33,035 nucleotides of DNA, taken from positions 1-33,035 of the forward strand of contig CAXXUA010000012.1 in NCBI GenBank assembly GCA_963663765.2, written 5' to 3'. This document shows positions 1 through 15,393 of the stretch, piece after piece. The notes under the pieces are model-generated. The model was given only the letters and a program-made list of their open reading frames with translations, was not told the DNA's origin and did no database searches. Position numbers and translations under genes: made by a program. Origin of the DNA: Candidatus Poribacteria bacterium (GTDB lineage: Bacteria; Poribacteria; WGA-4E; WGA-3G). How positions within the stretch are numbered: the first letter of the stretch is position 1; each line of letters opens with the position of its first letter.

Positions 1-284
1 TCTGCTACAAGTGTGCGATTCAAAAAATGTGTGTGGCATTTTAGCATACCTACAAAGCCGCAAGTTGTTCAAGTGTATCCAGTGTGTCGTTTTCGCTGGG
101 ATGTCCTTCTATTTCGCTTCTCTCTACGGCATTTTCACTGATGGCTGTTTATTCTTATCTCGTTGTGTATTCTACCCACAGGGGCGTATCAATAAATGTG
201 TTCTGGAGCAATCTGAACATCTTTTTATTTTCTCATTCACAAAATAAACGGTGTTCTTCTCAAAAATCGGTATTATCAGGCATA

Positions 285-543
285 CGGTATAAAGGCACGT
301 GCGGTGCAAAGCGGTGGCACAGCAGGGTTGCAAGTGCCGTGCAAGCGAAGCGAAGCACCAAACGCAGCAACAAGCGACGCGCATGTGGATGTGTGGTAAG
401 TGTAGCGAAGTGTAGCACATCGTCACGTCAAAGCGGAGCCACGCGAAGCGTGACGATGACGACTGCGAAACGGAGCGAAACGACACACTACCACAGAGCG
501 CAAGCTTCTGCCTGCCAACGCAAGCAGTGCACGCCTTATACCG
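285..543 (+). other. Branched hairpin element A (ssi/sso-like single-strand signal or structured ncRNA)
   Basis: Closing stem cggtataaaggcacgtgc (285-302) / gcacgccttataccg (529-543). Inner stems catcgtcacg (418-427) / cgtgacgatg (449-458) and tgtggtaagtgt (392-403) / acactaccaca (485-495). Loops rich in GCGAAGCG/GCGGAGC/GCAAGC. Confidence 0.65.
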
Positions 544-564
544 AACGCCGATCGTTGCGGTATG

Positions 565-2295
565 TTATCCGTCACTTACAACAGGGAGTGGCGGTTGATA
601 TGGTGTTTCTCGGAGTGTTTGGACTAAAAGGGATCGCGTCCATGACAAAGCAGCTTGGAGGTCTATCGCTTCGCCCGGTTGGATATATCCTTCTTTTTTG
701 TTTTGTCTACGTAGCGAGGTGAGACTCATCGTATTAGATTTTTTGCTATTGCACGGTTGGCATAAGAGCGCACGATTGTCTATGTCGTTGGTGCCGCCAT
801 CACTTTTCGGGACGATATGGTCAAGGTGTAAATAGCGTTTGTCGGGTGGCTCAAAGCTGCATCCCCAACATTTCAATCCGAACTGATCTACAAGGATTTG
901 GTGCATCTCGGCATGGCTGTGCAGCGGTTCGAGATGGTGTTGATAGACATGGGATAATTCTGGGACTGTGGGAACGTCTTGATCGGGGCGGGGCGGAGGC
1001 TCGGTTTGATAATAGTGGATTCCTCTCTTTTCTGTTTGTTCGTCAAGATATTTTCTTAGGTCCGCAGTGTCTGAATATTTATTCAGAAGTAGATCGCGAG
1101 CTTTGCGGTCAATTTTCATCAGACGCGTGATAATATGGTAGCGTGCATCTACGCGTCTGTCTATGCCTACCCACCGACGTTTGAGGTTGTCTGCTGCGAT
1201 TATCGTTGTTGCACAGCCACAGAACGGGTCTAATACGAGGTCGCCTTCATTGCTGCTTGCTTTGATAATGCGTTCATAGAGAGCAATCGGTTTTTGATCG
1301 GGCGAGCCTGTCCATTCATCTCCTTTGTTATAATTTGTGAAACCAGAAATATCTATGAATAGAGATTGAACTGGATTGCCAGAGTCTGCTTCAGCGTACC
1401 GCTTAAGCCCAGGCCATCCAGAACGACCTTTTTTTGGATGGTGAATTAATCCTACAGAATCAAGAATATCTAATCTATCATGAACGCCTTTTATAGATCT
1501 ATAGTTCGGAATGAGATTGTCTTCAATCCATTTGGCATAATTTCCAGTTAACGGGGCTGACCAAACGCGACCTTTAGCTCTTACATCATACCCTGACCAA
1601 GGTTGTGAGCTTTCCCCGCCACTATAACCGTGAGATGGGCCTGTCAAGTTATCCGATCTATACCTACCACGCTCGTCCTGGAGGGGATACGCCCTATCAA
1701 TTTCTTCTGGGGTTTTCGGAACTGCGATGGCAGATCCGTTCCAAGTTGTCTTTCCGGCTCCGGAGTAATACAACAATCTATCTGAGTTATTACCATATTT
1801 CTTTGGATCATTGTGAGCAATAGCTCTGCGCCACACGATTTCGTTTTTAAAGTTTTTTCTACCAAATATGGCATCCATACACATTTTGATGTAGTGGCTT
1901 GCGGTGGGATCGCAATGCAAATATATGCTTCCTGTCTCTTTTAGGATACGGTGCATTTCAATGAGCCTGACGCTGAGAAAGCATAAAAACGCTGCGGTAT
2001 CTTCGCCTTGACAATGTTTGGCAGCGTCTATGGCATGGTATAGTTCGGTGTGGTTGTCTTTGATTTCTTCAAGCCATTTGGGATGCACCTCGTTCCATTT
2101 CCATTGGTCTGGCAGTATGCCGGTGTCTCCCCATTTCCAGTTGTCTACATACTGTCCGGCTGTGCCGCTTCGGTTGCGTTTGATGTTGAAGGGCGGATCG
2201 GTGGCAATGAGGTCTACGGTGTCGCTGTTCATGCCGCGTAGCACTTCAAGGTTGTCCATTTCGTATAATGCGTTGTCGGGAAAGTTTTGTGTCAT
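565..2295 (-). CDS. Beta-class N6-A/N4-C DNA methyltransferase fused to C-terminal HNH endonuclease
   Basis: Motif IV DPPF (IATDPPFN) precedes motif I (LDPFCGCATT). C-terminal CWGC...LDHIVPKSDGGTNDIDNRALLCQPCNSKK is HNH. Start moved to MTQNF (2295) because a promoter lies at 2326-2355. Confidence 0.93.
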   Translation of the reverse strand: MTQNFPDNALYEMDNLEVLRGMNSDTVDLIATDPPFNIKRNRSGTAGQYVDNWKWGDTGILPDQWKWNEVHPKWLEEIKDNHTELYHAIDAAKHCQGEDTAAFLCFLSVRLIEMHRILKETGSIYLHCDPTASHYIKMCMDAIFGRKNFKNEIVWRRAIAHNDPKKYGNNSDRLLYYSGAGKTTWNGSAIAVPKTPEEIDRAYPLQDERGRYRSDNLTGPSHGYSGGESSQPWSGYDVRAKGRVWSAPLTGNYAKWIEDNLIPNYRSIKGVHDRLDILDSVGLIHHPKKGRSGWPGLKRYAEADSGNPVQSLFIDISGFTNYNKGDEWTGSPDQKPIALYERIIKASSNEGDLVLDPFCGCATTIIAADNLKRRWVGIDRRVDARYHIITRLMKIDRKARDLLLNKYSDTADLRKYLDEQTEKRGIHYYQTEPPPRPDQDVPTVPELSHVYQHHLEPLHSHAEMHQILVDQFGLKCWGCSFEPPDKRYLHLDHIVPKSDGGTNDIDNRALLCQPCNSKKSNTMSLTSLRRQNKKEGYIQPGEAIDLQAALSWTRSLLVQTLRETPYQPPLPVVSDG

Positions 2296-2325
2296 CGGTG
2301 TTTTCCACGTCGTGTTTTGGGGAAA

Positions 2326-2355
2326 AGGATAGCATGGGAAGGGGGATTGTGTCAA
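2326..2355 (-). promoter_or_regulatory. Sigma70-type promoter of the MTase-HNH gene
   Basis: Minus strand TTGACA-18 nt-TATCCT with TG extended -10, about 30 nt upstream of the ATG at 2295. Confidence 0.6.
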
Positions 2356-2433
2356 GTGGGGTCTGAATAGGTCAATACACTGACCTAAGGTGATGTTAAT
2401 CGCATTTGGGAGTAATGTCAATGCTATTTGAGT

Positions 2434-2727
2434 TTATATAATATCAAAATGAACTTCTATATTATCCTCTCCTGCTTCATTAAATGCTTTGACTTCAATC
2501 ATCCCATTGTCCCTTTTATCAGCACTATCCTCTTTTAATGGTATTTCTCCATATATGCGAATTTTATTACCATCCCTGCTATGTGCTAGACCGATCCAAG
2601 GACCGATAACACTACATTTAAACGCAGCAGTATTCTTTACATATACAATAATTTCGTTATAATCACCCCACTTAAGTGTTTGGCGAGGCATAGGTGATAT
2701 AATAGGGCATTCTGCTAAATTACTCAT
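2434..2727 (-). CDS. Small protein, possible single Ig-like (He_PIG/cadherin-like) domain
   Basis: RBS AAGGAG 7 nt before ATG (MSNLAEC). Beta-rich pattern GL...G.IRIYG.IP...IEVKAFNEAG...FDI. Confidence 0.6.
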   Translation of the reverse strand: MSNLAECPIISPMPRQTLKWGDYNEIIVYVKNTAAFKCSVIGPWIGLAHSRDGNKIRIYGEIPLKEDSADKRDNGMIEVKAFNEAGEDNIEVHFDII

Positions 2728-2944
2728 TGATATTCTCCTTACATAATTTATATTATTCAAACTTTTTCATCTTTAAATTCAAAAAAACGACCTAATAAAT
2801 GTAATTGTAACAAAGGGATTTGGGATTATCAAATGTCTTTTGGAATTGGCGTTTGGGACAAGACTGTCCCATTCAATCCAAACTATCTTGGCTAATCCAT
2901 CTAATCTTAACAGCGGCGAAAGTTTACAACTTCTCCGTTCTCTT

Positions 2945-3256
2945 TTAACGATAATGCAGTTCAATTTCATTTGGATAGAGTGGGGAACTTGCACCAACTA
3001 TCCGATCAAATATAAGTATACAGTTATCCCCAAGTCTGAAGTATTGATCGACCTTAATTGCTAAAGGACCATAAACTTCCACCTTTAATTCTTCTTTTGA
3101 TTTACCATCCCGACAAAAACTAAAGGTGACTTTTTTGATTTTTGAAGAGTTGTAATCATGAGGAATGTACTTATCTATTGCTTCATGGGTTGGAACTTCT
3201 TCAAAATAGGGGTCGGTTATTAGTTTACCACGTAAATTATAGCCTTGCATCTTCAT
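2945..3256 (-). CDS. Divergent SSB-like OB-fold protein
   Basis: LRGKLITDP ... VEVYGPLAIKVDQYFRLGDNCIL mirrors the SSB consensus L.G.L..DP ... V..WG.LA....Y.RKG..V.I. GAGGG RBS; no acidic C-terminal tail. Confidence 0.55.
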   Translation of the reverse strand: MKMQGYNLRGKLITDPYFEEVPTHEAIDKYIPHDYNSSKIKKVTFSFCRDGKSKEELKVEVYGPLAIKVDQYFRLGDNCILIFDRIVGASSPLYPNEIELHYR

Positions 3257-3334
3257 TTTCCCTCATGGTCTCAGTATAATTGCCATGAAAATAGTTGTAT
3301 AACCTATGCCAAATTTGGTCTTACTGAGGTATTC

Positions 3335-3487
3335 TATTATTAGGACTTACGCGAAATGCTTAATTATTCCCTTCATATGAAATGGGTCAAACGCTTTATC
3401 AAGTCAAACATAGTACGTTGCCTGATTTTCTATGTCAACAATTTTAAACCTACTCTTAAAATGGATTATGCGCAAGTTTTAATATTA
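3335..3487. mobile_element. Possible degenerate MITE / IS-end remnant
   Basis: Imperfect terminal inverted repeat tattattaggacttacgcg (3335-3353) / tgcgcaagttttaatatta (3469-3487) around an AT-rich non-coding core. Confidence 0.3.
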
Positions 3488-3876
3488 TATCATGTCCGCA
3501 AAACAAACATCAAATCGTTTCGTCTGGGGTGTGTAAAGTTCTTGGCAAAACAGCAATTATTCAACGATTGCATACCTCTGCGTATGTCATGAATGTTTGC
3601 ATTAATTGCATTAATTACTATTATAATTTGGATTTATTTATGAAAAACCTTCGCGAAAAAATAGAGTTAGCTTCAGTCATAATAAGAGATTATCAATGAG
3701 CTGGGTGTATTTCTGAGACTGAAAGAATGCGGGGCACGGAGACTCCGCAAGACAATGGTTGGTGAGAACTTAGTGCCCAAAACTTTACACACCCTTTCGT
3801 CTGTTCAGGTGCTAACAGTGTTTGCAGTTAAGATAAGTTTCAGTTGTAAATGAAGATTCTTTTCTGTTACCACCAT

Positions 3877-4380
3877 TTACCGCCACACCCTTTCTATAAC
3901 TCTCATAAATATATCTTCACTCACAGGGGCTTGGTCAGGGGCAATAATTTTTAAAAGCGACGTGTAAGCTTCATAGGGCATATATCCCCCTGGATAATTA
4001 TTACCACTGCATATCTCTGAATTTAACTCAAATCCCCACCAACTAATCAATTTTTGGGTTTTGTTGAGGTCGTCTTCTGGATCCCAAATCCCGTTGACTG
4101 CTTCTTCCTTTTCCCATATTTCCCGAACAATATCAGACGCTTCAACAGGGGTTATTTCACTGCGATTATAAATCCTACCGCACCCGTTACACCTGCATTC
4201 ATCACCATACTCAAGAAGAATGCCGTCACAAGAAATAGTGCTTGGACAATCACCATATTCATATATCTGTTCCCCTTTTCTAAATCCTCTCGCGAAAATA
4301 TCAATACTCACAAATACTCTCCTTTTTTTGTTCAACTGGCGATTTTCCGCCAGTTCAAAATTAAATACGGAACATATCAC
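3877..4380 (-). CDS. Hypothetical protein with Cys cluster (possible Zn ribbon)
   Basis: 167-aa ORF co-oriented with all other genes; CPSTISC...CRCNGCG. Confidence 0.7.
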   Translation of the reverse strand: MICSVFNFELAENRQLNKKRRVFVSIDIFARGFRKGEQIYEYGDCPSTISCDGILLEYGDECRCNGCGRIYNRSEITPVEASDIVREIWEKEEAVNGIWDPEDDLNKTQKLISWWGFELNSEICSGNNYPGGYMPYEAYTSLLKIIAPDQAPVSEDIFMRVIERVWR

Positions 4381-4398
4381 ATGGTTAATTTTAATATT

Positions 4399-4477
4399 GT
4401 TACTGATGCAAAACGTGGGTCAATTTATAAGTACGTACTCTTTAATTAGAAATTGACCCACGTTTTGCATCAGTAAC
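4399..4477. repeat. Perfect 28-bp inverted repeat with 23-bp spacer, overlapping the rep stop codon
   Basis: gttactgatgcaaaacgtgggtcaattt (4399-4426) / aaattgacccacgttttgcatcagtaac (4450-4477). Confidence 0.95.
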
Positions 4478-7400
4478 TCCATTTTTTTGATAATATCCGC
4501 GCTTTGGTTTAGACACCTTGCCTGCTTCCAAAAGTGCTTTAATAGCACTCCAAACATTTCGCTTCGCAAATCTTGCGTGTTTGACAATATCATTTGTTTT
4601 CCACACTTCACCATCACCGAGTATATCCAAGACATTCTGCTGAGCAGGCGGTAATGGTTTGATCCCTTTACACCACTTTCCAACAGTCTGTGGGTGTATC
4701 TCTAAATCTTCAGCGATTGCTTTTATAGTTTCACCGGCATGTCTGCGGAATTGTGCAGTTTCTTTTAGATCAGCGTTCTTTTCTGGCGGTGCGATAGTAT
4801 CATAGGTGTCGAGTGTGATCTCTGTCCCCTCCGGTGTGCTGGGTTGATTGAGAAGCCACCTTTTGAAAGACGCAAGCCGTAAATCCATGTGTTCTGTATC
4901 GGTCAAGTAGTAGTTTTCACCCAATTTTGCGATACGTTGTGGATACCATTCTTGAATGAATGCCCGCACCCATTCAACGACCATAGCGTCTGTAGCTATT
5001 TTCAAAAATCTTGCTTTACGGTATCCAGATGCTCTAAACGCTCCGTTTTGTAGTTCTGTTATGAAAGGTTTACCAGTGGAAGTCTCTGAATGCAAAACTT
5101 CACGAACGGTTGTTGCGAGTGCTTTCTCATCAAACACTTCTTTCGTAAGTCTATCCAGTAGGCAGGTAAGCAATTCTCCTGTCCGCCTATCATCACATAT
5201 TGATGTGATTTCAACACCACCACCGGACATCACCAGTTCAGCATCTACGCATTCAAGTTCGGCTTGTAATTGGTTTGCTGTCCATTTCGGTTGATGCACA
5301 GCGAAATATCCGCGTCGTTGTTTCGCAAGGTTCTTGGCGGAAATGTCATTTGTGACAAGTCCATTGTCAACTAATTTGACAGCAAGCAACATATCCTCAA
5401 CATCCAGTGCGGTATCATCGGCATTGGTGCGTGTATCATCCCAACCGACCGACTGCGACGCAGCGTTGGCAGCTTCATAAGCAAGCCGCATGATTGGTGT
5501 GAGTCGTCCTTTGTTGCTTTGGATGCGTATTTCTGAGGATGTCAACAACTTGGATTTTTCTATAAATTCTATTGCCTTCGGTATGTATGCATCTTTTTCT
5601 TTGTTGCGGAGTTCTTTTCGTATTGTCGACATAGATGTAAGCGTTTCGGGTGCGTGTGGTATAGATGATGCGTGAGACACCGGCATATTTGCCAACTTAG
5701 TGAGATGATGCTCTACAAACTGCTCAAATTGAAGATCCGCTAATGAGTTGAGTGCTTGGGCATAAGCAACTTTTTGTAAGCCGTTAGTGGATATATGTGC
5801 GTTTTCAGACTCTATCTGTTTCAATATTTCGTGATATAAACTCACATCGTAATTTTCTGTGGGTCTAACAGGGAGTGCCAGGTTGTAGTCGGTATAATGA
5901 ACGGACACACCGCAGCGTCCCCGATCTCTCACACATTGCTGCACCGTCATGCTTGCATCTCGCGCCCCGTGTTTAATACCAGTCAAAACCACCGTGCGCG
6001 CTTTTGGGTCTAAGATTGAGAGCCCAACACCTGCAGCGGATGTTCCGACAAAGACTCTTGTGTCCGTAAGTTTCTGGTTTCGTAGCACAGCATCGGCACG
6101 TGGCATGCCTTTCGTATAGGCAGAATACACTACTGGGGATTCCTCTCGAAACTCGTTAGCGATCAGTTCAGCATCTCTGCGTGTGTTGGTAAACACATAA
6201 GCGTTGAACCCTTGCTCAAGGATGTCGGTTATATCCTGTATACCCGATGCGACAATAGCGTTCTGTTTTCCTTTTGTGTTTTCGTGTTTGTGTAAAACCA
6301 CAGAACCTTGTGCTTGTGTAGCAGTGTTGTAAAATCCTTGAACGTTATCTGTTTCTAATTCCTCAGCAAATGCTTCCAATGCAAGCGTGGACTCGGTTTG
6401 TCCGCTCACAACCAATCCAGTAGATTCCAAAACATCCCGCAGACATTTTTTTACAGCTGTAGCATTGTCAATGGACAGTGCAAGTAATCCATAAGAGAAA
6501 TCCAGTTCGTCTATAGCAACATATAACTGTTCTGCTCCGTTATCCTGTGCGTGGCGAACGATACTTGGCAAGGATGGTAAACAAGCGATTGCACCACAAT
6601 CACCGATAAATCTGTCATCTCGGTCAACACCTTCATGCCATAAGCCCCATGCATTGCGTCCATATTGTTTACGCAACTGGTGTGCGAGGAATCTCGCGAC
6701 AGCAATGTTAGGCGTGGCAATAACACCCTTCCCAAGCCCAGCATTTGCAAGCATGACTAAATCTTTACAAATCTCTGTAGTCTTCCCTGTAGACATCCCT
6801 GACCCCATGTGAGTCAACATACCAGGTTCAAACAGCCTAAAATCAGCAAACTCAGGATCATCACCGATAAAACCTTGATGATCTGAGATGATAGAGTTTG
6901 GCAATGTGCGGTTAAGTTCATATTCCAGATACGAACCTATCGGATAGTCCTTGTGACACCCATCGCAATACACCCCAGCTGTCAACAAATACCTATCTAT
7001 CCATTTTGCAGTATCAGCTCCGCAGTGTTGACAGCTGCCAAACAGCGTTGACCACACGCGCCGTTTTTCAACCTCTGTAGGTTGTCCGTTCATAGCAAAT
7101 GTGTTGGTGAGTGGATGTAGGTATTTGTATTTAGGTGTCCAAACAGGTGTTGTGCCATGCCACCCCGCATCAGGCGACATCGCTAAGTACTCACGCACGA
7201 CACTGCGCGCCTCTGTAGAGAAATACGGATATGATGCTATTTCACGAACTTCTATTGTGGGTGCTGCTTTGATTATTGGGTGATCAGGTGGCAGTGTTGT
7301 GACAGGTTCTATGGGAACTCCTGGCGTTGTCATCTCTTCGTCTATCGGAACATTAGATTTCAACAGTCCTTCTTTGCGTGCGAATGCATCGCGTTGCTTG

Positions 7401-8686
7401 GCGGCTTCTTTGAATATGTCAGGATGTGTGCCTATACCGGCATCTGCCAAAGCACAACGCAATGCATGTCTTTGGCTTTTCTCTGTCATGTCATGACCAT
7501 AGATGTGCCATGCTAAAAATCTGTGAGCGTTGATGGTGTTTTGGTCGGCTGTTGAGGGGAATTCAGACTGCATTGTGTTGGAGTAGACTTTGAGCACCCC
7601 GTCATCAAGTTCAAAAGACCGATCTACATCAGACGCATGCCAATGCCATACATTATCGCGAATGTTTGTTGCTAAACCATGTTCAACAAATAAAGCAGCA
7701 GGATCAAGTTTGTTGAATGTTGAGATGGGTTCTTGGAGATCTGACACACTGAGATCATACCCTCGCTGTGTCAAAGTTTCGTTTATTTCTCTATTCCGTT
7801 CGCTGTTAGCTTTGTGATGTTCTTTGCGTTCTGTATCCTTTTTCTGCTGTTGTTTCTGGTGCTGTGTTTTTGTCATAACTGCGGCTTTGGCTACTTCCAA
7901 AGCAGACGCAAGCCACACCGTATCAACATCATAGTTATAAAAAGCATCCATTGCATTGTGTGTGTTTCCAAACCCTACCGCGACTGGGTTCTTCGTGACA
8001 TTTTTAGGTATACAATCAAGTTCTCCGCAGAGAATATCACCCAAAGCTCTAAACACTCGTTGATCTGTAATGGGTTGTGATAATATTACAACGCCACGCG
8101 CCTTGAAAGGTCTACCTTCATGGAGCGAGGATGCGGAAGGGATAAGGTAAGAGCAGATACGCTGCAGTAAGGGATAACGTTCAAAGAGTTCAGCTTGAGA
8201 AGAAACAGGTTCAGGGGCATCCAGGTGTTTCTCATCTCGAAACACATCTATATCCAGCAAGACACCAGAGACACCACGCCATGTGTTGGAATTGCGGATA
8301 TACTGATGACACCTCTCTCCAAACATCAACGATACGCCATATCCATCAGTAAGTCTTCTAAACACGGCATCGGGTGTATCAACACGTTGTATCCAGTGTC
8401 TCGCTCCTTGCATACCTGCTTGAGAATGTTTTGTCTGTGGAGATGTGCATTTCTCGGCAGTGTTTTCAAGGAATGCTATCTGTCCATCGGGGAGTGGTAC
8501 ATCGATAGAGACAAGCGTGTCCTGCTCTCTCGCTGCTGCTTCCATCTCTTTGTATGGAGGCACCGGGTGAAAATCAGATTTCAAAGCATGCAGAGCGTCT
8601 TTCTCTTGCGGGGGACACGGATAAAGCAGTTCAGGTAGTGTCCAGTGCTTGAAGGGATACCTAAAATCAGACTCTTTCCACTTCAT
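4442..8686 (-). CDS. Large replication protein: AEP-like primase + Zn finger + UL9/OBP-like SF2 helicase + C-terminal HTH/wHTH
   Basis: N-terminal GVLLDID and SASS...KARGVVILSQPI; CQHC...CDGC; Walker A GSGMSTGKTT; Walker B VAIDELD; FVGTSAAGVGLSI; QQCVRDRG; HTH GETIKAIAEDLEIHPQTVGKW; terminal wHTH-like segment; RBS AAGGAG. Confidence 0.85.
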   Translation of the reverse strand: MKWKESDFRYPFKHWTLPELLYPCPPQEKDALHALKSDFHPVPPYKEMEAAAREQDTLVSIDVPLPDGQIAFLENTAEKCTSPQTKHSQAGMQGARHWIQRVDTPDAVFRRLTDGYGVSLMFGERCHQYIRNSNTWRGVSGVLLDIDVFRDEKHLDAPEPVSSQAELFERYPLLQRICSYLIPSASSLHEGRPFKARGVVILSQPITDQRVFRALGDILCGELDCIPKNVTKNPVAVGFGNTHNAMDAFYNYDVDTVWLASALEVAKAAVMTKTQHQKQQQKKDTERKEHHKANSERNREINETLTQRGYDLSVSDLQEPISTFNKLDPAALFVEHGLATNIRDNVWHWHASDVDRSFELDDGVLKVYSNTMQSEFPSTADQNTINAHRFLAWHIYGHDMTEKSQRHALRCALADAGIGTHPDIFKEAAKQRDAFARKEGLLKSNVPIDEEMTTPGVPIEPVTTLPPDHPIIKAAPTIEVREIASYPYFSTEARSVVREYLAMSPDAGWHGTTPVWTPKYKYLHPLTNTFAMNGQPTEVEKRRVWSTLFGSCQHCGADTAKWIDRYLLTAGVYCDGCHKDYPIGSYLEYELNRTLPNSIISDHQGFIGDDPEFADFRLFEPGMLTHMGSGMSTGKTTEICKDLVMLANAGLGKGVIATPNIAVARFLAHQLRKQYGRNAWGLWHEGVDRDDRFIGDCGAIACLPSLPSIVRHAQDNGAEQLYVAIDELDFSYGLLALSIDNATAVKKCLRDVLESTGLVVSGQTESTLALEAFAEELETDNVQGFYNTATQAQGSVVLHKHENTKGKQNAIVASGIQDITDILEQGFNAYVFTNTRRDAELIANEFREESPVVYSAYTKGMPRADAVLRNQKLTDTRVFVGTSAAGVGLSILDPKARTVVLTGIKHGARDASMTVQQCVRDRGRCGVSVHYTDYNLALPVRPTENYDVSLYHEILKQIESENAHISTNGLQKVAYAQALNSLADLQFEQFVEHHLTKLANMPVSHASSIPHAPETLTSMSTIRKELRNKEKDAYIPKAIEFIEKSKLLTSSEIRIQSNKGRLTPIMRLAYEAANAASQSVGWDDTRTNADDTALDVEDMLLAVKLVDNGLVTNDISAKNLAKQRRGYFAVHQPKWTANQLQAELECVDAELVMSGGGVEITSICDDRRTGELLTCLLDRLTKEVFDEKALATTVREVLHSETSTGKPFITELQNGAFRASGYRKARFLKIATDAMVVEWVRAFIQEWYPQRIAKLGENYYLTDTEHMDLRLASFKRWLLNQPSTPEGTEITLDTYDTIAPPEKNADLKETAQFRRHAGETIKAIAEDLEIHPQTVGKWCKGIKPLPPAQQNVLDILGDGEVWKTNDIVKHARFAKRNVWSAIKALLEAGKVSKPKRGYYQKNGVTDAKRGSISN

Positions 8687-8687
8687 G

Positions 8688-9179
8688 TCAAAATCTCCTT
8701 ACACGACGTTGTAAAGGAGATTTGTGAAAAAATAGCATGCCCAAAAAAGTTTGACAATCTCTTGCGTTTTTTGGTATACTATACACGTCAATGCACGAAG
8801 GCTTTACAATGTCGTTTTTTGGTATACTATACACGTCAATCCACGAACTCTTTACAATGTCGTTTTTTGGTATACTATACATGTCAATCTGCGAAGGCTT
8901 TACAATGTCGTTTTTTGATATGCTATGAACGTCAATCTGCGAACTCTTTACAGCGTCGTGTTTTGATACATCAATCCGCGAAATTCTCCTCACAAAGAAA
9001 TCGTGTTTTGATATGCTCGTATAAGACACTGTAGCATTTGTCTTATATACAAAATCCACGAAACTATGTGTCCAACAAAGCTCGTGATTTTTTGGGGTTG
9101 CCTGAAGGCAACCCTTCACTTTTTTATCTGACCACATTTTACCATTCCCATCTGTATTTGTCAACAAAAAGTTTGTCAT
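8688..9179 (-). CDS. Putative leader ORF with 16-aa repeats, stop codon adjacent to rep start
   Basis: GGAG upstream of ATG. DVYSIPKNDIVKPS-type repeats stay in frame. Junction reads TGA-C-ATG into rep. May be an incidental frame through the repeat array. Confidence 0.4.
   Translation of the reverse strand: MTNFLLTNTDGNGKMWSDKKVKGCLQATPKNHELCWTHSFVDFVYKTNATVSYTSISKHDFFVRRISRIDVSKHDAVKSSQIDVHSISKNDIVKPSQIDMYSIPKNDIVKSSWIDVYSIPKNDIVKPSCIDVYSIPKNARDCQTFLGMLFFHKSPLQRRVRRF
8691..8723 (-). promoter_or_regulatory. Hairpin sequestering the rep ribosome-binding site
   Basis: mRNA reads aaatctcctt(t)aca-acgtcg-tgtAAGGAGattt-tgac-ATG: a 13-bp stem with one bulge containing the SD. Confidence 0.75.
8751..8780 (+). 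promoter_or_regulatory. Near-consensus antisense promoter
   Basis: TTGACA (8751-8756)-18 nt-TATACT (8775-8780) with TG extended -10, directed opposite to the helicase-rep operon. Confidence 0.7.
8765..9020. repeat. 48-bp tandem repeat array (4 good copies plus 1-2 degenerate), iteron-like
   Basis: Units start at 8765, 8813, 8861 and 8909 (cgttttttggtatactatacacgtcaat..cgaa..ctttacaatgt), with degenerate units at 8957 and 9002. gaaggc/gaactc alternate, giving a 96-bp higher-order period. Confidence 0.95.
8787..9125 (+). ncRNA. Predicted ~340-nt antisense RNA to the rep leader
   Basis: Bounded by the promoter at 8751-8780 and the intrinsic terminator at 9095-9125; inferred, not observed. Confidence 0.45.
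9095..9125 (+). terminator. Intrinsic terminator on the antisense strand
   Basis: gggttgcc-tgaa-ggcaaccc followed by ttcactttttt; no U-tract on the minus strand. Confidence 0.65.
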
Positions 9180-9219
9180 AATTTGTCATCTCCGACCGAG
9201 AATCACACAGATTTTTCTT

Positions 9220-10953
9220 CTACCGCGAAGGTCGTAATTGCGTTCTTGTTTGTGCAGACATCTTTTTAATTTTTTCGCTTGCTGCTTTTTTGGTGGTTGG
9301 CGTATCTTCCTGAGAAACACCCCGCCAACGTAGCCAGCCGAGTTGTTTAGGAGTCGGTGGTTCAAAATCAATGAGCGTTGAAATGAGTGCTGAGGCATCT
9401 GCACAGTTCAACAGGTCTAACTCAGCGAATTCAAAATCAAACTTATCAGATAGTAGTTTTTTCTGTTTGTGAGTAGCTGATCTGGATCGCATTGAAAACG
9501 AAGTGCGAGATAAGGCTTGCATCAATCGTTTCCAAACAGCTTGAAAGTCGTGAGCTTCACCACAAATCCGTCTCAGTAGTTTTGTGTCAACTAACAAGAG
9601 CAGCCCTTCTGACAGACTTTCTGCGTCAATGTCGTCAGGCAATATGTCGTATTCAGCTTCTTTTTTTGCTATGAGTGCCTGTTTCGCATCTACTTTTACA
9701 CTTTCAAGTCTCTGTGATAATACGCTATGCAACGCTTGCAGGTGTGGTGCGCGGGCTTTCTGCCACTCAATCAACTCCAGTATAGACAGGTCTGGTCTGG
9801 TGAAGTGTAAATTCGCATACCCGCCAAAGATGCCGGATGCTGCCACAGAGATCAAATCACTCTGTCTGCGTTTGAATGCGAGATCAAGAATTAAGCAATC
9901 CTGTTTACCGGGTGCTTTCCGCAGTCCTCGCCCCACCATTTGTTGAATAAGTAATCCGCTCTTGGTAGGTCTTGCCACGACCAATGCGTCTATACAGGGA
10001 CAATCAAAACCTTCCGTCAAAACCATGCAATTGACAAGGACGCGTAGTTTTCCGTTTTCAAAATCGTGTAGTGTTTGTCTGCGTTGCTCCGTTGGTGTTG
10101 ATCCAAGCACACACCCTGAAGGGATACCCGCATCATTCAATATGTTTGTAGCTTCGGTAGCAGATGCTACATTTGGCAGGAATATCAGGATGTGTTTACG
10201 GTCGTTGAGTCTGTCAGCAATTACATGTGGGAGATTGTCTAAAAGTCCTCCCTCAGACATCGCTTCACCGAGTTGGTTTTTGTTGAGATCACCGACACTG
10301 CTTCGCACATGTGATATATCCACTCCAGCGTCATGTGTCTCGCACCGAAAATCTGAAAGATAATCGGGGATTAGGTCAGCAATAGAAAGACGGTATACCA
10401 CTTCGTCATAAATCTTATCAAGGCTTTCACCGTCCGTCCGTTCTGGTGTCGCGGTAACACCGAGCAAGGTTCGGTCAGGGTGGTGGTTCGGTTCTATTTC
10501 TTCAGCGTTAGAGACACCACAAGTGAACAGGTCTATCAAGCCGTATCTGTAGAACAATCTTCGGTATGAATCGGCTGTGCTGTGATGTGCTTCATCGCAA
10601 ATAATGAGGTCGTAATCGGTGGGGAGTTGGTGAAGTCGCGACCTGCGGGCAAGTGTCTGAACAGATGCGATTGTGATCTGTGTGTTGGTTTCGTTCTGCT
10701 GCCCCATCACTATCCCAACATCGCAAGACGGATCAAGATTTAGAAATGTGTTTTTAGTTTGTTGAATCAGTTCTTGACGATGTGCCAACACCAAAGTTTT
10801 GAGGTTGTGCTTACGAGCGTAAGACGCAAAGATCACCGTCTTACCGCCGCCTGTAGGGATAACGATTGATTTTCGGGTGGCTTCGGAATTGTTAATAAGG
10901 TCTACACACTCATGCTGATATCCTCTCAGTTCGAGTGTTTTGTCTGTGTTCAT
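9220..10953 (-). CDS. SF2 DEAD/DEAH-box helicase (ResIII + Helicase_C; Irc3/RadD-like)
   Basis: LRGYQ, PTGGGKT, DEAHH, TATPER, LTEGFD, QMVGRGLR; C-terminal paired (A/P)T.KQ...AS..I repeats; RBS AGGAG before MNTDK. Confidence 0.93.
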   Translation of the reverse strand: MNTDKTLELRGYQHECVDLINNSEATRKSIVIPTGGGKTVIFASYARKHNLKTLVLAHRQELIQQTKNTFLNLDPSCDVGIVMGQQNETNTQITIASVQTLARRSRLHQLPTDYDLIICDEAHHSTADSYRRLFYRYGLIDLFTCGVSNAEEIEPNHHPDRTLLGVTATPERTDGESLDKIYDEVVYRLSIADLIPDYLSDFRCETHDAGVDISHVRSSVGDLNKNQLGEAMSEGGLLDNLPHVIADRLNDRKHILIFLPNVASATEATNILNDAGIPSGCVLGSTPTEQRRQTLHDFENGKLRVLVNCMVLTEGFDCPCIDALVVARPTKSGLLIQQMVGRGLRKAPGKQDCLILDLAFKRRQSDLISVAASGIFGGYANLHFTRPDLSILELIEWQKARAPHLQALHSVLSQRLESVKVDAKQALIAKKEAEYDILPDDIDAESLSEGLLLLVDTKLLRRICGEAHDFQAVWKRLMQALSRTSFSMRSRSATHKQKKLLSDKFDFEFAELDLLNCADASALISTLIDFEPPTPKQLGWLRWRGVSQEDTPTTKKAASEKIKKMSAQTRTQLRPSR

Positions 10954-11044
10954 TGATAATCTCCTGTTGATAGAAAATAGGAGAACCAATGCACTGCCAC
11001 CAGTTTACTATAAGTAAATATTTTTCTGCTTGGTGAAAATTCAT
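10910..11044 (-). CDS. Small 44-aa ORF upstream of and overlapping the helicase start
   Basis: AAGGAG-7 nt-ATG (MNFHQAEKYLL...), first ORF after the promoter at 11113-11141. Confidence 0.4.
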   Translation of the reverse strand: MNFHQAEKYLLIVNWWQCIGSPIFYQQEIINEHRQNTRTERISA

Positions 11045-11112
11045 TGTTTTTCTCCTTAAACTTAAATATACTTGAATATTGTCAGTATCCAAAGTTCCAT
11101 TAAACTAATACC

Positions 11113-11141
11113 ATTATACCATTATCTTGTTTCATAGTCAA
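11113..11141 (-). promoter_or_regulatory. Consensus sigma70 promoter of the helicase-(leader)-rep operon
   Basis: TTGACT-17 nt-TATAAT with TG extended -10. Confidence 0.8.
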
Positions 11142-11558
11142 GGAGAAAATTGCATCAGACGCATAATATAACAATCAAATACAACTTATCATAACGTGAA
11201 CCTATCACGCATGTATACCTAAACAAAAAACCGCATCGGATTACCGACACGGTTCTTTGTAAGTTTAAGGCACGACTAGGGGTCGTGTTAGGCGGTTGTG
11301 AGGTTTTAATACAACCTTGACGAGTTGCGTGTATAGCGGCTGACAAAGTCCGCGACAAATCGTCTACAACATAGTATGCCATAACCACCCCACTGTTGCA
11401 ATCCAATTTTTTCGTTATTTCTGTCGTATACCATGCATTTTTATGACAAAACATGCTCATTTTCCGTGTTTTTGATGTGTGTCTACACCCTGTTATGAAA
11501 TGTATAATATAGCCATGATACCAGTTGTTTGGTGCGTGAACCTTAGCCACAAAAAATA

Positions 11559-11579
11559 TTTGTTAAGAAACTTAACAAA
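11559..11579. promoter_or_regulatory. Palindromic site, possible operator
   Basis: tttgttaag-aaa-cttaacaaa. Confidence 0.35.
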
Positions 11580-12067
11580 GTTCAGATTCGCACTCACGGA
11601 AATCCGTTATTGTTCTGTGGAATCGTCCACTCTCGCGCGGTTAGGCGGACGTGCTGCCATCCAAACAAGGAGTCAGAGCAGCGCGCTTTTGACTGCGTAT
11701 CTTTGACAATGGGGGTGTCTATTAGGAGTCCGTTGTATCGTTTTTCTGATGGGGGCATTGGTTACCTCACGGTAATCGTCACAGAATTCTTTGAGTTCAA
11801 AATTGACAGATTTCGGGTAATTATTGGAATCTGGGTACTCAAATTGTCCCATTTTAGCAAACTACCACATGCTATCCATCCCAAAGCGTCAACGTATGTA
11901 AAATTAGTGTTTTAGTAAAGGGGTGTTCTAATAAAAGCGTTGTAGGGCATTCTGAGCATTTTTAATTTCGGGACAAACTTTGCGAAAAGTGGGTTAGATA
12001 CAGGGGACTGCCGGGCGGCTTTTTTTATCTGCGTGAACAAAAAAGTAGAGTTGCAAGTCTACAATTG

Positions 12068-12441
12068 GATATAAGGCGGGCGGAGGTGAGCCGCAAAAGC
12101 ACGCTTTAGTGTGTGTTGCGTGCGAGTCGTAGCCCGCCGAAGCAGCGAGGCGGTGTGTGTGCAGTGTGCAGCAAGCCCGCAGCGTTTGCGTAGTCTGCCT
12201 GCTGGTGCAAGGGTGCGTTGCGTATTCTCGCATCTAAACCCGCAGCAAGCGTCGCGTCTGTGGAGTTGCCGTAGTGTAGTGGAGCGAGTCCCCGCAGTCA
12301 AAGCGCAGCGGTGCCAAGGGGACGAAAAGCGGAACGAAACGGAGGCTATGCCACATAGCGCAAGCGTCCAGCACAGCAGACGGAGCAATAAGCAAGTGGC
12401 GCAGCAAACCTGCTAAGCACGCGCCGTCGCGGTGATGTATC
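12068..12441 (+). other. Branched hairpin element B, homologous to element A
   Basis: Stems ggcgggc (12075-12081) / gcccgcc (12132-12138), gcacgc/gcgtgc, gtcccc (12288-12293) / ggggac (12318-12323). Shares ordered motifs with A: caagcgWcgcg..tgtgga, gtgtag, gtcaaagcgSagc, cggaRcgaaacg, ccacaKagcgcaagc. Confidence 0.65.
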
Positions 12442-12453
12442 AGGAGAATTGAC

Positions 12454-12630
12454 ATGTCAGAGGAAAAGAAAAGTACTCTTAGTGATAAGGATATAGATCG
12501 TATAATTAGAAGAGTTGCCGTGGACTCCAATTACTCTAAGGTGGAGATAAACGCGGATGCCGGTAGTAACAGACGAGAGAATACACTACTAAAACTTTGG
12601 ATACGCCAAAATACGTGCCTTGTGTGCTAA
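12454..12630 (+). CDS. Small 58-aa protein (below ORF-track cutoff); only credible plus-strand gene
   Basis: AGGAG-7 nt-ATG; MSEEKKSTLSDKDIDRIIRRVAVDSNYSKVEINADAGSNRRENTLLKLWIRQNTCLVC*. Confidence 0.45.
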   Translation: MSEEKKSTLSDKDIDRIIRRVAVDSNYSKVEINADAGSNRRENTLLKLWIRQNTCLVC

Positions 12631-12655
12631 ACACGCGCTGTCGTGATACTTTCAC

Positions 12656-12967
12656 CTAATCATCTGTCGGTTCACTTAATCTTGATGTTTGCAATTCGTC
12701 TATTTTTCCGACATCTGATGTCGCTACCTTCCAGCTTACTTTGATGAACACAACGAATAAGACAATTGGAATGATGATATCTACCATAGCATGCAATATG
12801 TGGTACATGTGATATCCTAAGTTGTAAAGCCCTGATGTCCAATGATCTATTTCTTCTTCCGTAGGCACCATGACTTGCTTCTGAATTTTGACTGCTGTGA
12901 TATGTCCAACGTATTTTAGATAAAGATTGGCGTCATTTGTTATAGTTTTTAACCATCCTTTGCCCAT
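12656..12967 (-). CDS. Hypothetical single-pass membrane protein
   Basis: Strong RBS AAGGAGGTG; hydrophobic stretch IIIPIVLFVVFI. Confidence 0.75.
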   Translation of the reverse strand: MGKGWLKTITNDANLYLKYVGHITAVKIQKQVMVPTEEEIDHWTSGLYNLGYHMYHILHAMVDIIIPIVLFVVFIKVSWKVATSDVGKIDELQTSRLSEPTDD

Positions 12968-13055
12968 GGTACACCTCCTTTGCGCTTGAAACGCCCAAAG
13001 GGTATTGTTTTTCTCTCCATTACGCGGTCATTTCAAATTTCCTTTCAAATACCAT

Positions 13056-13598
13056 TTACCAAATTATATGCGGATCACCCGGAGCTATAAACGGGTCGGA
13101 TGATCTGAAAAATGAATTAGTCGGTTTGCTCCAATCGGGTATATTAACAGATATTAGATCTACATCTTCAGGTAAACGCTTATTTAACACAGGATTAAGT
13201 ATAAGCCCGAGATATTTTTCTATACCGGGAAGTGGATTCGTAGATTTCAATAGTTCTGTTGCACTGAATCGGTTTAGAGTGGGGTATCTGGATGGATTTG
13301 CGCGCACGGGATGCAATGGTGGAATTGCCCACGTTGCATATAGTCCATAATCTTGAAATTCTGGTTTACTGAGATGTTCTCTGAATCTCTGTTTAATATA
13401 CCCGCTTCCTACATACAAGGTTTTGTCGTTATGAAGACCTTCCCAAATGATATAAACGCCGCTAACATCAAGTTCAAGGATTTTAAACCCGATCTGAAAC
13501 TTATGTGTAAGACGTGGATCGTTTAAGAGTTCTGAATTGAAGCGGCACCAAAGCAAATTATATTTATCCTTTTTCCAATTTACGTTCATAGATTCCAT
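13056..13598 (-). CDS. GIY-YIG-like nuclease
   Basis: SGVYIIW...LYVGSG.IKQRFREH...GIE...P..N; strong RBS AAGGAGGTG. Confidence 0.75.
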   Translation of the reverse strand: MESMNVNWKKDKYNLLWCRFNSELLNDPRLTHKFQIGFKILELDVSGVYIIWEGLHNDKTLYVGSGYIKQRFREHLSKPEFQDYGLYATWAIPPLHPVRANPSRYPTLNRFSATELLKSTNPLPGIEKYLGLILNPVLNKRLPEDVDLISVNIPDWSKPTNSFFRSSDPFIAPGDPHIIW

Positions 13599-13621
13599 GA
13601 GGGCACCTCCTTAAAAGTTGC

Positions 13622-13647
13622 GGGTCGCCAGTTTGAACTGACGACCC
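13622..13647 (-). terminator. Intergenic hairpin / probable terminator
   Basis: gggtcgccagtt-tg-aactgacgaccc, just after the stop codon at 13661. Confidence 0.5.
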
Positions 13648-13660
13648 ATTTGTAATACCT

Positions 13661-14101
13661 TTATTCTTTTGAGTTCTCCAGTGATTTCTCCTGCGGTTGT
13701 GTTGGCGGGGGTTCTGTGAACTCCTCGCCCCGAGCTTCCGCTTCTTTTCGCCTATGTTCCCACGCTGCGATCTCGCGGTAAACCTCCGCTTTGGCTTCTG
13801 CTTTAGCTGCTTCTATCCGTTTCTCACGTCTTGCTTCAATAAAGTCTGATAATAACATGATCAGGTCTATGCCTCCGATTATCATTGCGGCGAATGCCGC
13901 ACCCACAGGTATAAATGCGGAAATATCTTTTGTGACATTTTGAACGGATACGTGTCCCTTCCAGCCTTGTGTGAGTTCAAAGTCCAGTGCAATGTATCCG
14001 TATATGAGAGCAAATAGAGAAATTAGGAATAGAGCAACGCCTGTTTTTCCTGTTCTCCAGAAGTCTCGGACAGCTTTCCAGAAGGTTCTAATCTGTTTCA
14101 A
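13661..14101 (-). CDS. Hypothetical membrane protein, two TM segments and charged C-terminal tail
   Basis: TTG start with GGAG RBS; two hydrophobic helices; AKAEAKAEVYREIAAWEHRRKEAEARGEEFTEPPP. Confidence 0.8.
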   Translation of the reverse strand: MKQIRTFWKAVRDFWRTGKTGVALFLISLFALIYGYIALDFELTQGWKGHVSVQNVTKDISAFIPVGAAFAAMIIGGIDLIMLLSDFIEARREKRIEAAKAEAKAEVYREIAAWEHRRKEAEARGEEFTEPPPTQPQEKSLENSKE

Positions 14102-14125
14102 AATGTGCTCCGCTGTGTTGTGTAC

Positions 14126-14154
14126 AATATAACATATTTTAGATTTTAAATCAA
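14126..14154 (-). promoter_or_regulatory. Promoter of the membrane protein gene
   Basis: TTGATT-17 nt-TATATT with TG extended -10. Confidence 0.55.
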
Positions 14155-14250
14155 GGTGAATTCCAGTTGTCGTTTGTTGCCCATCTGCGTATTGTGCGTG
14201 GTGCCCCGTCTTTTTGGAGTCATAAGCAGTATTTGAACATTGATAGCCTT

Positions 14251-14988
14251 TTATGCGGTGCGTGTTATCCGCTGTATCTTGTCCTTTTCCAGTGAGGTTA
14301 AGTCGTAGCCTCTGGTGGCAAGTTCAAGGAATAGTTTTTCGTCGCTGAAAGTCTTGAGTGAACTGCCTAAAATGTCCCTTATGTGCAGTTCAGAACTTAT
14401 TGCCATCGCTTCAACAGCAGCACGGACATTTTGATAGTTGACACCGAGATATTTCTGAGTTGTCGTGATGTTCTTATGCCCAAGCATCTCTTGCACCGCA
14501 TAAATATCACCGGTGCGATCATAAAGCCGTTGAGCAAATGACTTACGCATTGAATGTGTCGCGAGTTTTCCGTTCAATCCAGCCAACTCAAAAGCCTTTT
14601 TCAAAACATCATGAGCAGCGCGTCTTGACATCTTGGTGCTGCCTTGTCCGTTACGAGAGGGGAATAATGGTCGTTGCTTTGCGATGCTCTTGTATGTCTT
14701 GCGATGCCATTTCACAACATCACTGATCGCTGCTCTACCATCAGAATTCACCGGGACAGCACGGGAGTGTTCCTTGCCCTTGACTATAGATTTATCAAAA
14801 AGCATGTCTCTCACCGGGGATCCATTCTGGTAGACATCTCCGATACATAGGCTTAGCAGCTCACTGATCCGTCCGCCTGTAGACACGCCAATAAGAAAAA
14901 GCGAACGGTTGCGAATTTGGTAAATGCCGTCAAAACATTCAGAGACCTGCCGAATTTCATTGTTGTCAAGAGGTCTTGTGCCTTTCAT
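14251..14988 (-). CDS. Tyrosine recombinase (resolvase-type, catalytic domain only)
   Basis: GGRISELL (R), HSMRKSFA (HxxR), LGH, TQKYL (Y); GAGG RBS. Confidence 0.95.
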   Translation of the reverse strand: MKGTRPLDNNEIRQVSECFDGIYQIRNRSLFLIGVSTGGRISELLSLCIGDVYQNGSPVRDMLFDKSIVKGKEHSRAVPVNSDGRAAISDVVKWHRKTYKSIAKQRPLFPSRNGQGSTKMSRRAAHDVLKKAFELAGLNGKLATHSMRKSFAQRLYDRTGDIYAVQEMLGHKNITTTQKYLGVNYQNVRAAVEAMAISSELHIRDILGSSLKTFSDEKLFLELATRGYDLTSLEKDKIQRITRTA

Positions 14989-15392: not shown

Positions 15393-15393
15393 A

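Follow-up and report, generated by a model that had tools for sequence, protein, structure and literature searches.

Elements A and B of a Candidatus Poribacteria plasmid: diverged copies of a modular imperfect-palindrome family that may act as a folded RNA

What are the two long imperfect palindromes that separate the gene blocks of a Candidatus Poribacteria plasmid, and would they act as RNA or as DNA? The window analyzed here is a whole stretch of 33,035 nt, one of the 15 contigs of a 6.35-Mb Candidatus Poribacteria assembly. In it a 17,074-nt unit occurs ~1.93 times head to tail, with open reading frames (ORFs) and repeats recurring at +17,074. The two unit copies are 99.96% identical (six 1-nt gaps, zero mismatches), and the circle joint 17074->1 was present in contigs of 4/4 public runs. 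The - strand carries nearly all plasmid genes, arranged as two blocks, for which the + strand is the template. The elements in question, A (285-543, 259 nt) and B (12068-12441, 374 nt), occupy the two inter-block gaps, both on the + strand, and are letter-identical in the second unit copy (17359-17617 and 29142-29515, respectively). Poribacteria are uncultured sponge symbionts and, to our knowledge, almost nothing has been described of their plasmids, non-coding RNAs or replication signals. Results of our analyses indicate that A and B are diverged copies of an undescribed modular imperfect-palindrome family, found only in one Poribacteria genus. We tentatively favor a role as structured intergenic elements, similar to ERIC or BOX, that act as a folded + strand RNA.

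Local alignment of 360-508 with 12236-12368 gave a score of 50, which none of 1000 dinucleotide shuffles of B reached (mean 22.0, standard deviation 2.8, maximum 36); A aligned with the reverse complement of B scored 23. This bears out the homology proposed in an earlier, sequence-only reading of the window, where a likeness exceeding that of dinucleotide-shuffled controls had been expected. In nhmmer searches across the 6.35-Mb genome A retrieved B (E 3.4e-6) and B retrieved A (E 1.6e-4). The five motifs listed in that reading are indeed common to both elements in identical order, and four of them (caagcgWcgcg, gtcaaagcgSagc, cggaRcgaaacg, and ccacaKagcgcaagc) are confined to A and B within the 17-kb unit. 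The stem round gtcaaagcgSagc is replaced, as had also been noted: it is formed by CATCGTCACG/CGTGACGATG in A (418-427/449-458) and by GTCCCC/GGGGAC in B (12288-12293/12318-12323). Both elements are GC-rich islands (57-59% vs. ~42%) with a purine excess on the + strand. Upstream, the homology reaches to a separate conserved box (181-232 for A, 11920-11970 for B).

The proposal that the family is undescribed is supported by the database searches. Using cmscan with Rfam 15 (1-17500, both strands, E<=1), we found nothing at A or B; the sole hits, mir-302 at 4403-4473 and snoTBR5 at 8886-8972, are irrelevant. No match was obtained by blastn at word size 11 for A with its flanks (150-560) or for B among 72,556 PLSDB plasmids, a search that was also the single one to cover similarity to known Frpo or single-strand initiation (ssi) elements, and blastn against a phage collection returned no match to the elements. 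Copies were instead detected in the same genome and its close relatives. The copy at C3:132329-132604 of the same assembly is A minus 354-473, deleted between AGCGAA repeats, and is placed within a chromosomal copy of plasmid positions 78-2295. A second one, at C3:438452-438563, corresponds to the 3′ part of B from 12339 on and adjoins a homologue of the 146-aa gene, and a third, at C5:500014-500464, is full-length and diverged. Full-length relatives number about six, among them this C5 copy and the copies G002:C15, G002:C14a, and G002:C14b, and ~10 copies are ~100-nt minis consisting of the 3′ module (about 12332-12378) and then ...ACACCGCCACACCGA. Copies thus occur on the plasmid and on chromosome contigs. 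Among 61 relatives, part of B was matched by blastn in 10 and A in 4, all of the same genus; a 17-nt pattern was matched in 6/40 genomes of the genus, with 2 control hits. R1, a covariance model that includes helices P4 and P5 and was seeded on A together with the G002:C15 copy, retrieved B at 44.8 bits and gave matches in 4/151 genomes of the phylum (22 genera, E<=0.01), all in the genus of the elements. An exact pattern run on one genome per GTDB species yielded 5 loci, all in Candidatus Poribacteria metagenome-assembled genomes. A pattern scan of JGI metagenomes gave nothing real, its one hit being an unrelated, coding-like GC-rich stretch, and the scan of IMG/VR viral contigs gave 0 hits.

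As had been claimed, both elements fold, with minimum-energy structures that are rods closed by long-range pairing around a common branched core. A full-length copy is a 240-370-nt rod with a side hairpin, a core (P4, a purine-rich internal loop, and P5), and a ~45-nt 3′ module. In the minimum-energy folds of A and B the successive parts are an outer helix, helix X/Y, the side hairpin, P3, P4, the internal loop, and P5. In A the 5′ arm of the closing helix (285-303) pairs with 528-543, and the ends of this helix recur in the A-type copies G002:C14b and C3:132k. The 5′ arm of helix X/Y (GGCAcAGCAG, 315-325) pairs with 508-517 (CUGCcUGCC), the side hairpin that branches from the rod spans 327-371 and has a GCGAAGC tip, the P4 5′ strand UGUGGUAAGUGU (392-403) pairs with 485-495, and the 10-bp terminal hairpin P5 (418-458) carries gtcaaagcggagc in its loop; the P4 3′ strand and then the conserved CCACAGAGCGCAAGC motif occupy 485-507. 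B has a specific extra 5′ hairpin (12075-12138), followed by the 5′ arm of the outer helix (12149-12164, pairing with 12410-12428; 4/12 pairs are G-U), the 5′ arm of X/Y (GUCUGCcUGCUGG, 12193-12205, pairing with CCAGCAcAGCAGAC at 12368-12381), the side hairpin (12206-12247), the P4 5′ strand UGUGGAGUUGCC (12259-12270, pairing with 12344-12355), the 6-bp P5 with gtcaaagcgcagc in the loop (12288-12323), and the conserved 3′ module (12332-12378). No other piece of the family is as widespread as this module, and it alone is kept in the minis. In helix X/Y a C/CA internal loop separates two segments of 4-6 bp, and the arms of the helix are swapped between A and B. P3 is built from the conserved CAAGCGNCGCG and AGCGCAAGC motifs, and the two strands of the large purine-rich internal loop carry GTGTAG and CGGARCGAAACG, respectively. 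At least three kinds of outer shell occur across the family. A-type copies share the mutually pairing ends GGTATRAAKGCACGTGCG ... GCACGCCTTATACC; compared with miniature inverted-repeat transposable elements, the copies are few and diverged, and no target-site duplication was seen beside A, the C3 copy or G002:C14b.

The two core helices were examined for signs of selection on the fold. Four distinct versions of P4 (5′ strand/3′ strand) were found: UGUGGUAAGUGU/ACACUACCACA in A, the same in G002:C15, UGUGGAGUUGCC/GGCUAUGCCACA in B, UGUGCCUCUGGC/GCCUGUGGCACA in the C5 copy, and UGUUGAGUUGAC/GUCUAUACAACA in G002:C14b. Pairing is preserved by changes on both sides at positions 4, 5, 10, 11, and 12. 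When the best complement of the P4 12-mer was searched for in the upstream 230 nt, it always lay 85-100 nt away in A, B, the C5 copy, and G002:C14b, with p = 0.03, 0.124, 0.052, and 0.052, respectively (500 shuffles each), and ~0.003 by Fisher combination of the four values. Sliding the partner strand by 1-3 nt reduced the P4 pairs from 10/12 to 3-9 in B, the C5 copy, and G002:C14b; the control was ungapped and uninformative for A and G002:C15, where P4 is bulged. P5 is formed by perfect or near-perfect stems of 10, 6, 7, and 8 bp in A, B, the C5 copy, and G002:C14b, and their sequences are unrelated. P4 is kept through compensatory changes, and P5 is replaced outright in each version. With a helix-anchored alignment, RNAalifold recovered both helices (-22.25 kcal/mol; covariation term 3.7), and none of 200 column shuffles reached the observed value (-0.10±0.39). 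As this alignment was built on the proposed helices, the result shows consistency and does not test them independently. Alignments fitted to the covariance model were excluded from the pair counts, since they force short copies onto the model.

Folding was compared between strands and between RNA and DNA parameters. As RNA, the + strand of A folds at -115.1 kcal/mol (z -4.7 to -5.4 vs. shuffles) and its - strand forms a rod too (-106.2 kcal/mol, z -2.2 to -2.8), while for B the z-scores are -2.2 to -2.4 on the + strand and -0.2 to -0.6 on the - strand. Under DNA parameters the z-score is -4.1 for A and -0.3 for B. The claim that G-T pairs favor the plus strand held only in part: it is true of B, with 15/122 G-U pairs on the + strand vs. 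4/105 on the - strand, and not of A, with 6/89 on both. The composition itself is strongly strand-specific. T makes up 15.8% of the element strand, on which the words TAGCG, AGCGC, GTAGC, AAGCG, and GCAGC reach 10-20 times the genome expectation; the reverse complements of these words hardly occur. AGC recurred at 5-nt spacing 24 times vs. 2.7 expected (z 12.8), a spacing due to the heptamer GCGNAGC. In 8 copies the element strand carried 28 GCGNAGC/GCGNNAGC words and the opposite one 0, compared with 6.48±2.24 (maximum 14) in dinucleotide shuffles and a genome background of 0.089 per kb per strand for such mini-hairpin words. The strand-specific words are retained in copies diverged beyond blastn (the C5 copy, G002:C14a, and G002:C14b).

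The copies are also mosaic. The G002:C15 copy is B-like in its 5′ part, A-like in the core and B-like again in the 3′ part, with inserted REP-like hairpins, and the C5 copy holds one REP-like insertion. Such hairpins lie in or beside copies at L018:~1290-1390 and C5:~500180-500230 and in the L003 and L011 flanks; they include GGTATGAATGCC..GGCATTC units, which the A-type 5′ end resembles, and GTAG-tagged GGAGCGACC units. In 4/4 runs we found the joint 12378->557, which links a B-type 3′ module to the flank that follows A, at a depth above that of the plasmid, and in 4/4 runs different 5′ parts precede 12332. The deletion form of A (343->474) was present in 3/4 runs. In one run a relative has 11972-12408 replaced by 35 other letters (11971 to 12409), so B is absent from it. 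The homology of C3 to the plasmid begins at 12339, and break points recur at the start of the 3′ module. Copies exchange modules by recombination, and pieces of them are deleted or added at fixed break points. Whichever reading of the elements is right, active exchange of modules between plasmid and chromosome is documented in these symbionts. The conserved box upstream of A (181-232, + strand) is a separate module of ~50 nt (...AATGYGTTSTGGRGCAWTCTGAACAT...) with an internal ATGC-N8-GCAT repeat, which at A belongs to a conserved upstream region of ~200 nt. It was also found at C3:94482-94505 and C3:132537-132560, in G002:C14 (L043 ~2110-2170) and in G033:C64 (L035). At G002:C14, G033:C64 and C3:94.5k no element follows downstream; the box may be an operator.

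What, then, do the elements do? What the data establish is that A and B are homologous members of a new, narrowly distributed family with core helices, a strand-specific composition and mosaic copies; that RNA rather than DNA is the active form, and that there is a function at all, we infer. The explanation to which we lean, tentatively, is that of a structured intergenic element acting as a folded + strand RNA. ERIC (also IRU) of enterobacteria and BOX of Streptococcus pneumoniae are intergenic imperfect palindromes, 100-350 nt long and limited to particular lineages; they are modular and non-coding, with stable predicted folds and with size variants that arise by insertion or deletion at discrete internal sites; they are present in tens to hundreds of copies per genome. 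The A/B family is similarly intergenic, modular and non-coding, varies in size by insertions and deletions, belongs to a narrow lineage and has a stable predicted fold. It differs from ERIC and BOX in being plasmid-borne at ~5 copies per genome and in having no sequence similarity to them, and also in its branched core, in which stems covary or are replaced and the purine-rich loop is large, its strong strand-specific GCGNAGC content, and the one helix whose arms are swapped between subtypes. By this explanation the purine-rich + strand would fold as a single strand, with RNA favored, and the structured non-coding element would sit between transcription units, as ERIC or BOX does. We count for it the family and its narrow range, the core helices, the strand-specific composition, the mosaicism and the convergent gene that comes next downstream in 6/7 longer copies. 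Its GCGNAGC/NAGCG words would be shown as a protein-binding or nuclease-resistant surface, and the folded element would mark or insulate transcript ends. We counted in favor of RNA the G-U-rich helices of B, the purine-rich loops, the chromosomal copies, and the lack of a known route to single-stranded DNA (ssDNA), and in favor of DNA the mini-hairpin words, the rod shape, a resident primase, and the role of the folded strand as gene template. If the RNA reading is true, this would be a family of structured RNAs borne by a plasmid, possibly with a protein-binding repeat. We rank the RNA element first, followed by ssDNA initiation, a decaying repeat, a - strand terminator and, last, a recombination site.

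Several results weigh against a folded RNA of the ERIC/BOX kind. Significant fold z-scores were obtained only for A, B, and G002:C14b, with values of ~0 in G002:C14a, G002:C15, the C5 copy, and the minis. An unbiased palindrome self-alignment of 5 copies gave 24 G-T pairs vs. 33 A-C mismatches (10 vs. 9 by a stricter count), a balance by which wobble pairing singles out no strand. Automatic alignment of six copies with MAFFT followed by RNAalifold returned a 2-bp hairpin only; the P4 5′ strands are out of register in the MAFFT alignments. The covariation support comes from four independent versions only. The P4 5′ strand was not found in the mini copies (p 0.4-0.9), which are therefore 3′ modules only. 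The copy number is far under that of classical ERIC or BOX. Neither a sigma-70-like promoter upstream of A nor an intrinsic terminator after it was found, and B has a single - strand promoter match, at chance level, and no intrinsic terminator. The public runs that match the plasmid sequence comprise five of DNA type and no RNA run. Finally, GCGNAGC words are known for their unusual stability as hairpins in DNA (PMC13037366), and this would point to DNA, not RNA.

The last point leads to the rival that survives best, namely that A and B are ssi signals. An exposed + strand would fold, the stems capped by mini-hairpins would exclude the protein that binds ssDNA (SSB), and the archaeo-eukaryotic primase (AEP)-helicase of the plasmid, or the host primase, would be recruited to begin synthesis of the complementary strand, on the model of ssiA/ssiB for RepB′ of RSF1010 or of G4-type origins. 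We regard this as possible, if doubtful. The 28 to 0 distribution of the GCGNAGC/GCGNNAGC words between strands counts for it. In the Kimoto and Hirao review, GCGNAGC-type words are presented as extraordinarily stable DNA mini-hairpins that bind SSB poorly, and they are placed at the primase sites of G4, St-1, and alpha3, at RSF1010 ssiA as CCGAAGG, and in the phage N4 hairpin promoters as GCGGAGC (PMC13037366). It also fits that nearly all plasmid genes use the + strand as template and that A folds well under DNA parameters. Moreover, the sequence-only reading had supposed that the plasmid encodes a primase-type domain, and the structural comparison agrees. The candidate is a 1414-aa protein (4442-8686, - strand), the first 600 residues of which have no Pfam match. 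It has a Helicase_C domain, weak C-terminal helix-turn-helix (HTH) matches, and a weak NCBIfam match to CyRepA1 plasmid replication proteins, and a language-model look-up gave weak leads to the RepB_primase and BT4734-like families (0.89). An LDIDVF (DxD) motif is conserved in an alignment of 26 homologues. In the AlphaFold2 (AF2) model of residues 1-620 (mean predicted local distance difference test score 74.5), residues 68-279 adopt a predicted AEP primase fold, for which the top Foldseek matches were weak (RepB′, E 0.013; S-2L PrimPol, E 0.014, probability 0.97). VIA-align gave Z 7.1 with RepB′ (3h20; root-mean-square deviation 3.5, 148 aligned) and Z 6.0 with S-2L PrimPol (6zp9), the next value being 4.3. 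The scores are modest but consistent, and we conclude from them that the plasmid has its own primase. Homologues of the protein number 333 in metagenome assemblies, where P0001-P0004 (N-terminus 97-48% identical) come from contigs of 7-38 kb, and occur in 13/176 genomes of the phylum.

Other results speak against ssDNA initiation. As described in PMC8567376, ssiA and ssiB of RSF1010 are 40 nt each and lie within oriV, inverted relative to each other and on opposite strands. A and B, in contrast, are 259 and 374 nt, branched, on one strand and 5.3 and 11.8 kb apart, and lie far from the likely iteron/AT-rich region at 15.1-16.2 kb; the absence of a PLSDB match is a further difference. The likeness to G4-type sites and ssiA/ssiB that remains lies in strand-specific hairpins with mini-hairpin words (PMC13037366) and in the RepB′-like AEP fold predicted for the Poribacteria plasmid. 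In 12 contigs of related Rep genes no A/B-like AGCG-rich island was found within ~10 kb of the gene. Copies are placed on chromosome contigs, B is missing from a related replicon, and the DNA fold of B has a z-score of -0.3. Pfam scans of the plasmid ORFs scanned gave no match to the HUH rolling-circle Rep families (Rep_1, Rep_2, Rep_trans), and no relaxase or type IV secretion system (T4SS) was matched by Pfam, NCBIfam, PADLOC, or PHROGs among plasmid ORFs >=100 aa, several of which had no match of any kind. With no relaxase, T4SS or rolling-circle Rep in the Pfam scans, there is no known route to long ssDNA.

The conserved structure that is linked to Rep is a different one. A 35-bp inverted repeat (4399-4477; 94% complementary, 9-nt spacer), which accounts for the spurious mir-302 hit, spans the stop codon of the 1414-aa gene. 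Counterparts of 37 bp were found at the Rep stop in 2/6 related loci (L083:7403-7484 and L084:7521-7601, core TGATGCAAA..TTTGCATCA), and the large palindromes near related Rep genes map to the Rep stop codon and not to A/B-like islands. According to PMC4234260, pRN1-type plasmids encode a PrimPol-helicase-wHTH Rep and have a large and essential origin stem-loop at the same position, just 3′ of rep. By analogy, the 35-bp inverted repeat is a candidate origin or terminator. A and B resemble that stem-loop in being large and conserved in structure more than in sequence, on a plasmid with a Rep of the same domain order (PMC4234260). They differ from it in place, as the spot 3′ of rep is taken by the 35-bp inverted repeat, which is conserved in two related replicons; A lies 3.9 kb beyond that spot and B upstream of the block.

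The sequence-only reading had also raised the possibility of Frpo-type ssDNA promoters. These are, according to PMC11541004, long imperfect hairpins of ~300 nt on the template strand of downstream genes, and A and B are similar to them in form and in that each precedes, in the - direction, a one-way gene block with a methyltransferase. A search for -35/-10 hexamers at 16-18 nt spacing did not support this possibility: A lacks such sites on both strands, and the only one in B, a 9-of-12 match of the - strand (12301->12273), is at chance level against the 1.2±1.0 expected in shuffles. The stems of A and B, unlike those of Frpo, are without -35, -10 or UP elements, and no oriT, relaxase or T4SS was found on the plasmid circle. 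TATTAT at 264-269 was rejected as a + strand promoter of A for want of a -35 partner and because B lacks it; its counterparts at two related loci are TATAAT or TATGAT.

In a more specific form of the ssDNA reading, A and B would be a new class of large branched ssi, recognized by the RepB′-like primase-helicase of the plasmid so as to turn exposed + strand DNA into duplex, and the chromosomal copies would be marks of integrated or decayed replicons. We consider this form somewhat unlikely. Were the DNA reading true, the ssi concept would reach a new phylum and a new architecture. It would be the first ssi-type system beyond classical proteobacterial plasmids and coliphages, and GCGNAGC mini-hairpins would appear as a general device at priming sites. 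In either case the family is a compact object for testing, as it brings together a branched core, replaced stems, a GCGNAGC load, and a replicon with a predicted RepB′-like primase-helicase.

A third explanation would do without any function. The elements would be a selfish or decaying repeat, a palindrome that spreads by recombination and erodes, and the structure would be the residue of a palindromic origin. Copies that are mosaic, truncated, deleted or invaded by REP-like hairpins fit this well, as do the loss of B from one related replicon, the several z-scores near 0, the balanced G-T and A-C mismatches and the fact that no partner gene is common to all element loci. Decay does not account, however, for the compensatory changes in P4, for the replacement of P5 by new perfect stems instead of its loss, or for the strand-specific words that persist in copies diverged past blastn. 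Both plasmid copies are also intact and occupy equivalent places between gene blocks. A repeat without function is thus unlikely in our view.

The fourth possibility is that the elements act from the - strand, as the pyrimidine-rich 3′ untranslated end of a convergent operon, and serve as a factor-independent terminator, as insulation or as a barrier to 3′ exonucleases. REP and BIME elements have such roles at the 3′ ends of operons. The downstream neighbor gene is convergent in 6/7 longer copies, with its stop ~20-450 nt off, and G002:C14a is unclear. The distance from the end of the element to the opposite-strand stop is ~21 nt for A (the methylase-HNH gene), ~20 nt for G002:C15, ~35-40 nt for the C5 copy, 149 nt for G002:C14b, 214 nt for B, and ~450 nt for C3:438k. 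The stable - strand rod of A (z down to -2.8) agrees with this possibility, and 3/8 family members fold lower on the - strand, the minis and the C5 copy being among the copies of lower energy there. Yet no T-run follows on the - strand, B on the - strand folds no better than its shuffles, every conserved word and mini-hairpin motif sits on the + strand, and a mini in G003/G020 lies between two genes on the strand of the element itself. We therefore hold action from the - strand to be quite improbable.

The weakest of the five is that A and B are att-like sites for the 245-aa tyrosine recombinase (14251-14988) and its HTH_17, excisionase-like partners, which is very improbable. Two HTH_17 genes, with an excisionase-family match, lie near the recombinase gene, break points recur at 12332/12339, and an HTH_17 gene is divergent upstream of A as its homologue is upstream of the C5 copy. 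A usual recombinase core has arms around a 6-8-bp overlap; no core of recombinase type was found in the elements, the lone candidate being an unfit 6-3-6 mini-palindrome. Two direct copies would split the circle, yet the 17,074 joint is intact in 4/4 runs, and the recombinase is without an N-terminal DNA-binding domain.

Some known element types were rejected outright. TnpB (Cas12f1-like Zn-ribbon) gave 43 hits in the genome and the IS200-type Y1 transposase 6, none of them adjoining an element copy, and a TnpB omega-RNA or IS605 end was rejected; the upstream box is 3′ of a TnpB at just 1 plasmid or chromosome box site (C3:94.5k). A group II intron, retron, integron attC or type I/III toxin-antitoxin RNA was set aside in the absence of a reverse transcriptase or integron integrase, a tandem array and an Rfam hit. 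Of the ORFs that follow the elements on the + strand, the 41-aa one after A (600-725) was rejected as coding, since 6/9 listed variant sites (621-694) fall at the wobble position of the - strand methylase frame and 1 at its own. A 58-aa ORF (12454-12630, +) with a good AGGAG site begins 13 nt past B; no homologue of it was seen at other element loci.

The remaining features of the plasmid belong to the two - strand blocks. Block 1 (16976->12656) encodes two HTH_17 paralogues, the tyrosine recombinase, and small membrane and unknown proteins. One of the 1-nt gaps, probably a read error, leaves the recombinase ORF of the second unit copy with 195 instead of 245 aa. Within this block the region at ~15.1-16.2 kb, with its repeats, HTH_17 genes and AT-rich part, is the likeliest candidate for an iteron-type origin: at 15132-15347, 15394-15854, and 16527-17022 two 108-nt direct repeats adjoin the duplicated HTH_17 gene, annotated by NCBIfam as a plasmid replication DNA-binding protein, the duplication being a 1.17-kb repeat of 91-94% identity, and a stretch of 34% GC lies at 15.8-16.2 kb. 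Block 2 (10989->565) encodes a ResIII/RadD-like helicase, a 163-aa repeat protein, the 1414-aa protein with its predicted N-terminal AEP primase fold, Helicase_C and C-terminal HTH, small unknown ORFs, and an N6/N4 DNA methyltransferase fused to a C-terminal HNH nuclease (565-2421, - strand). A paralogue of the last, 85-92% identical, is chromosomal (C3:129.6-131.1k) and lies beside the deleted A copy. The 163-aa ORF (8688-9179) contains four 48-nt tandem repeat units at 8717-9016.

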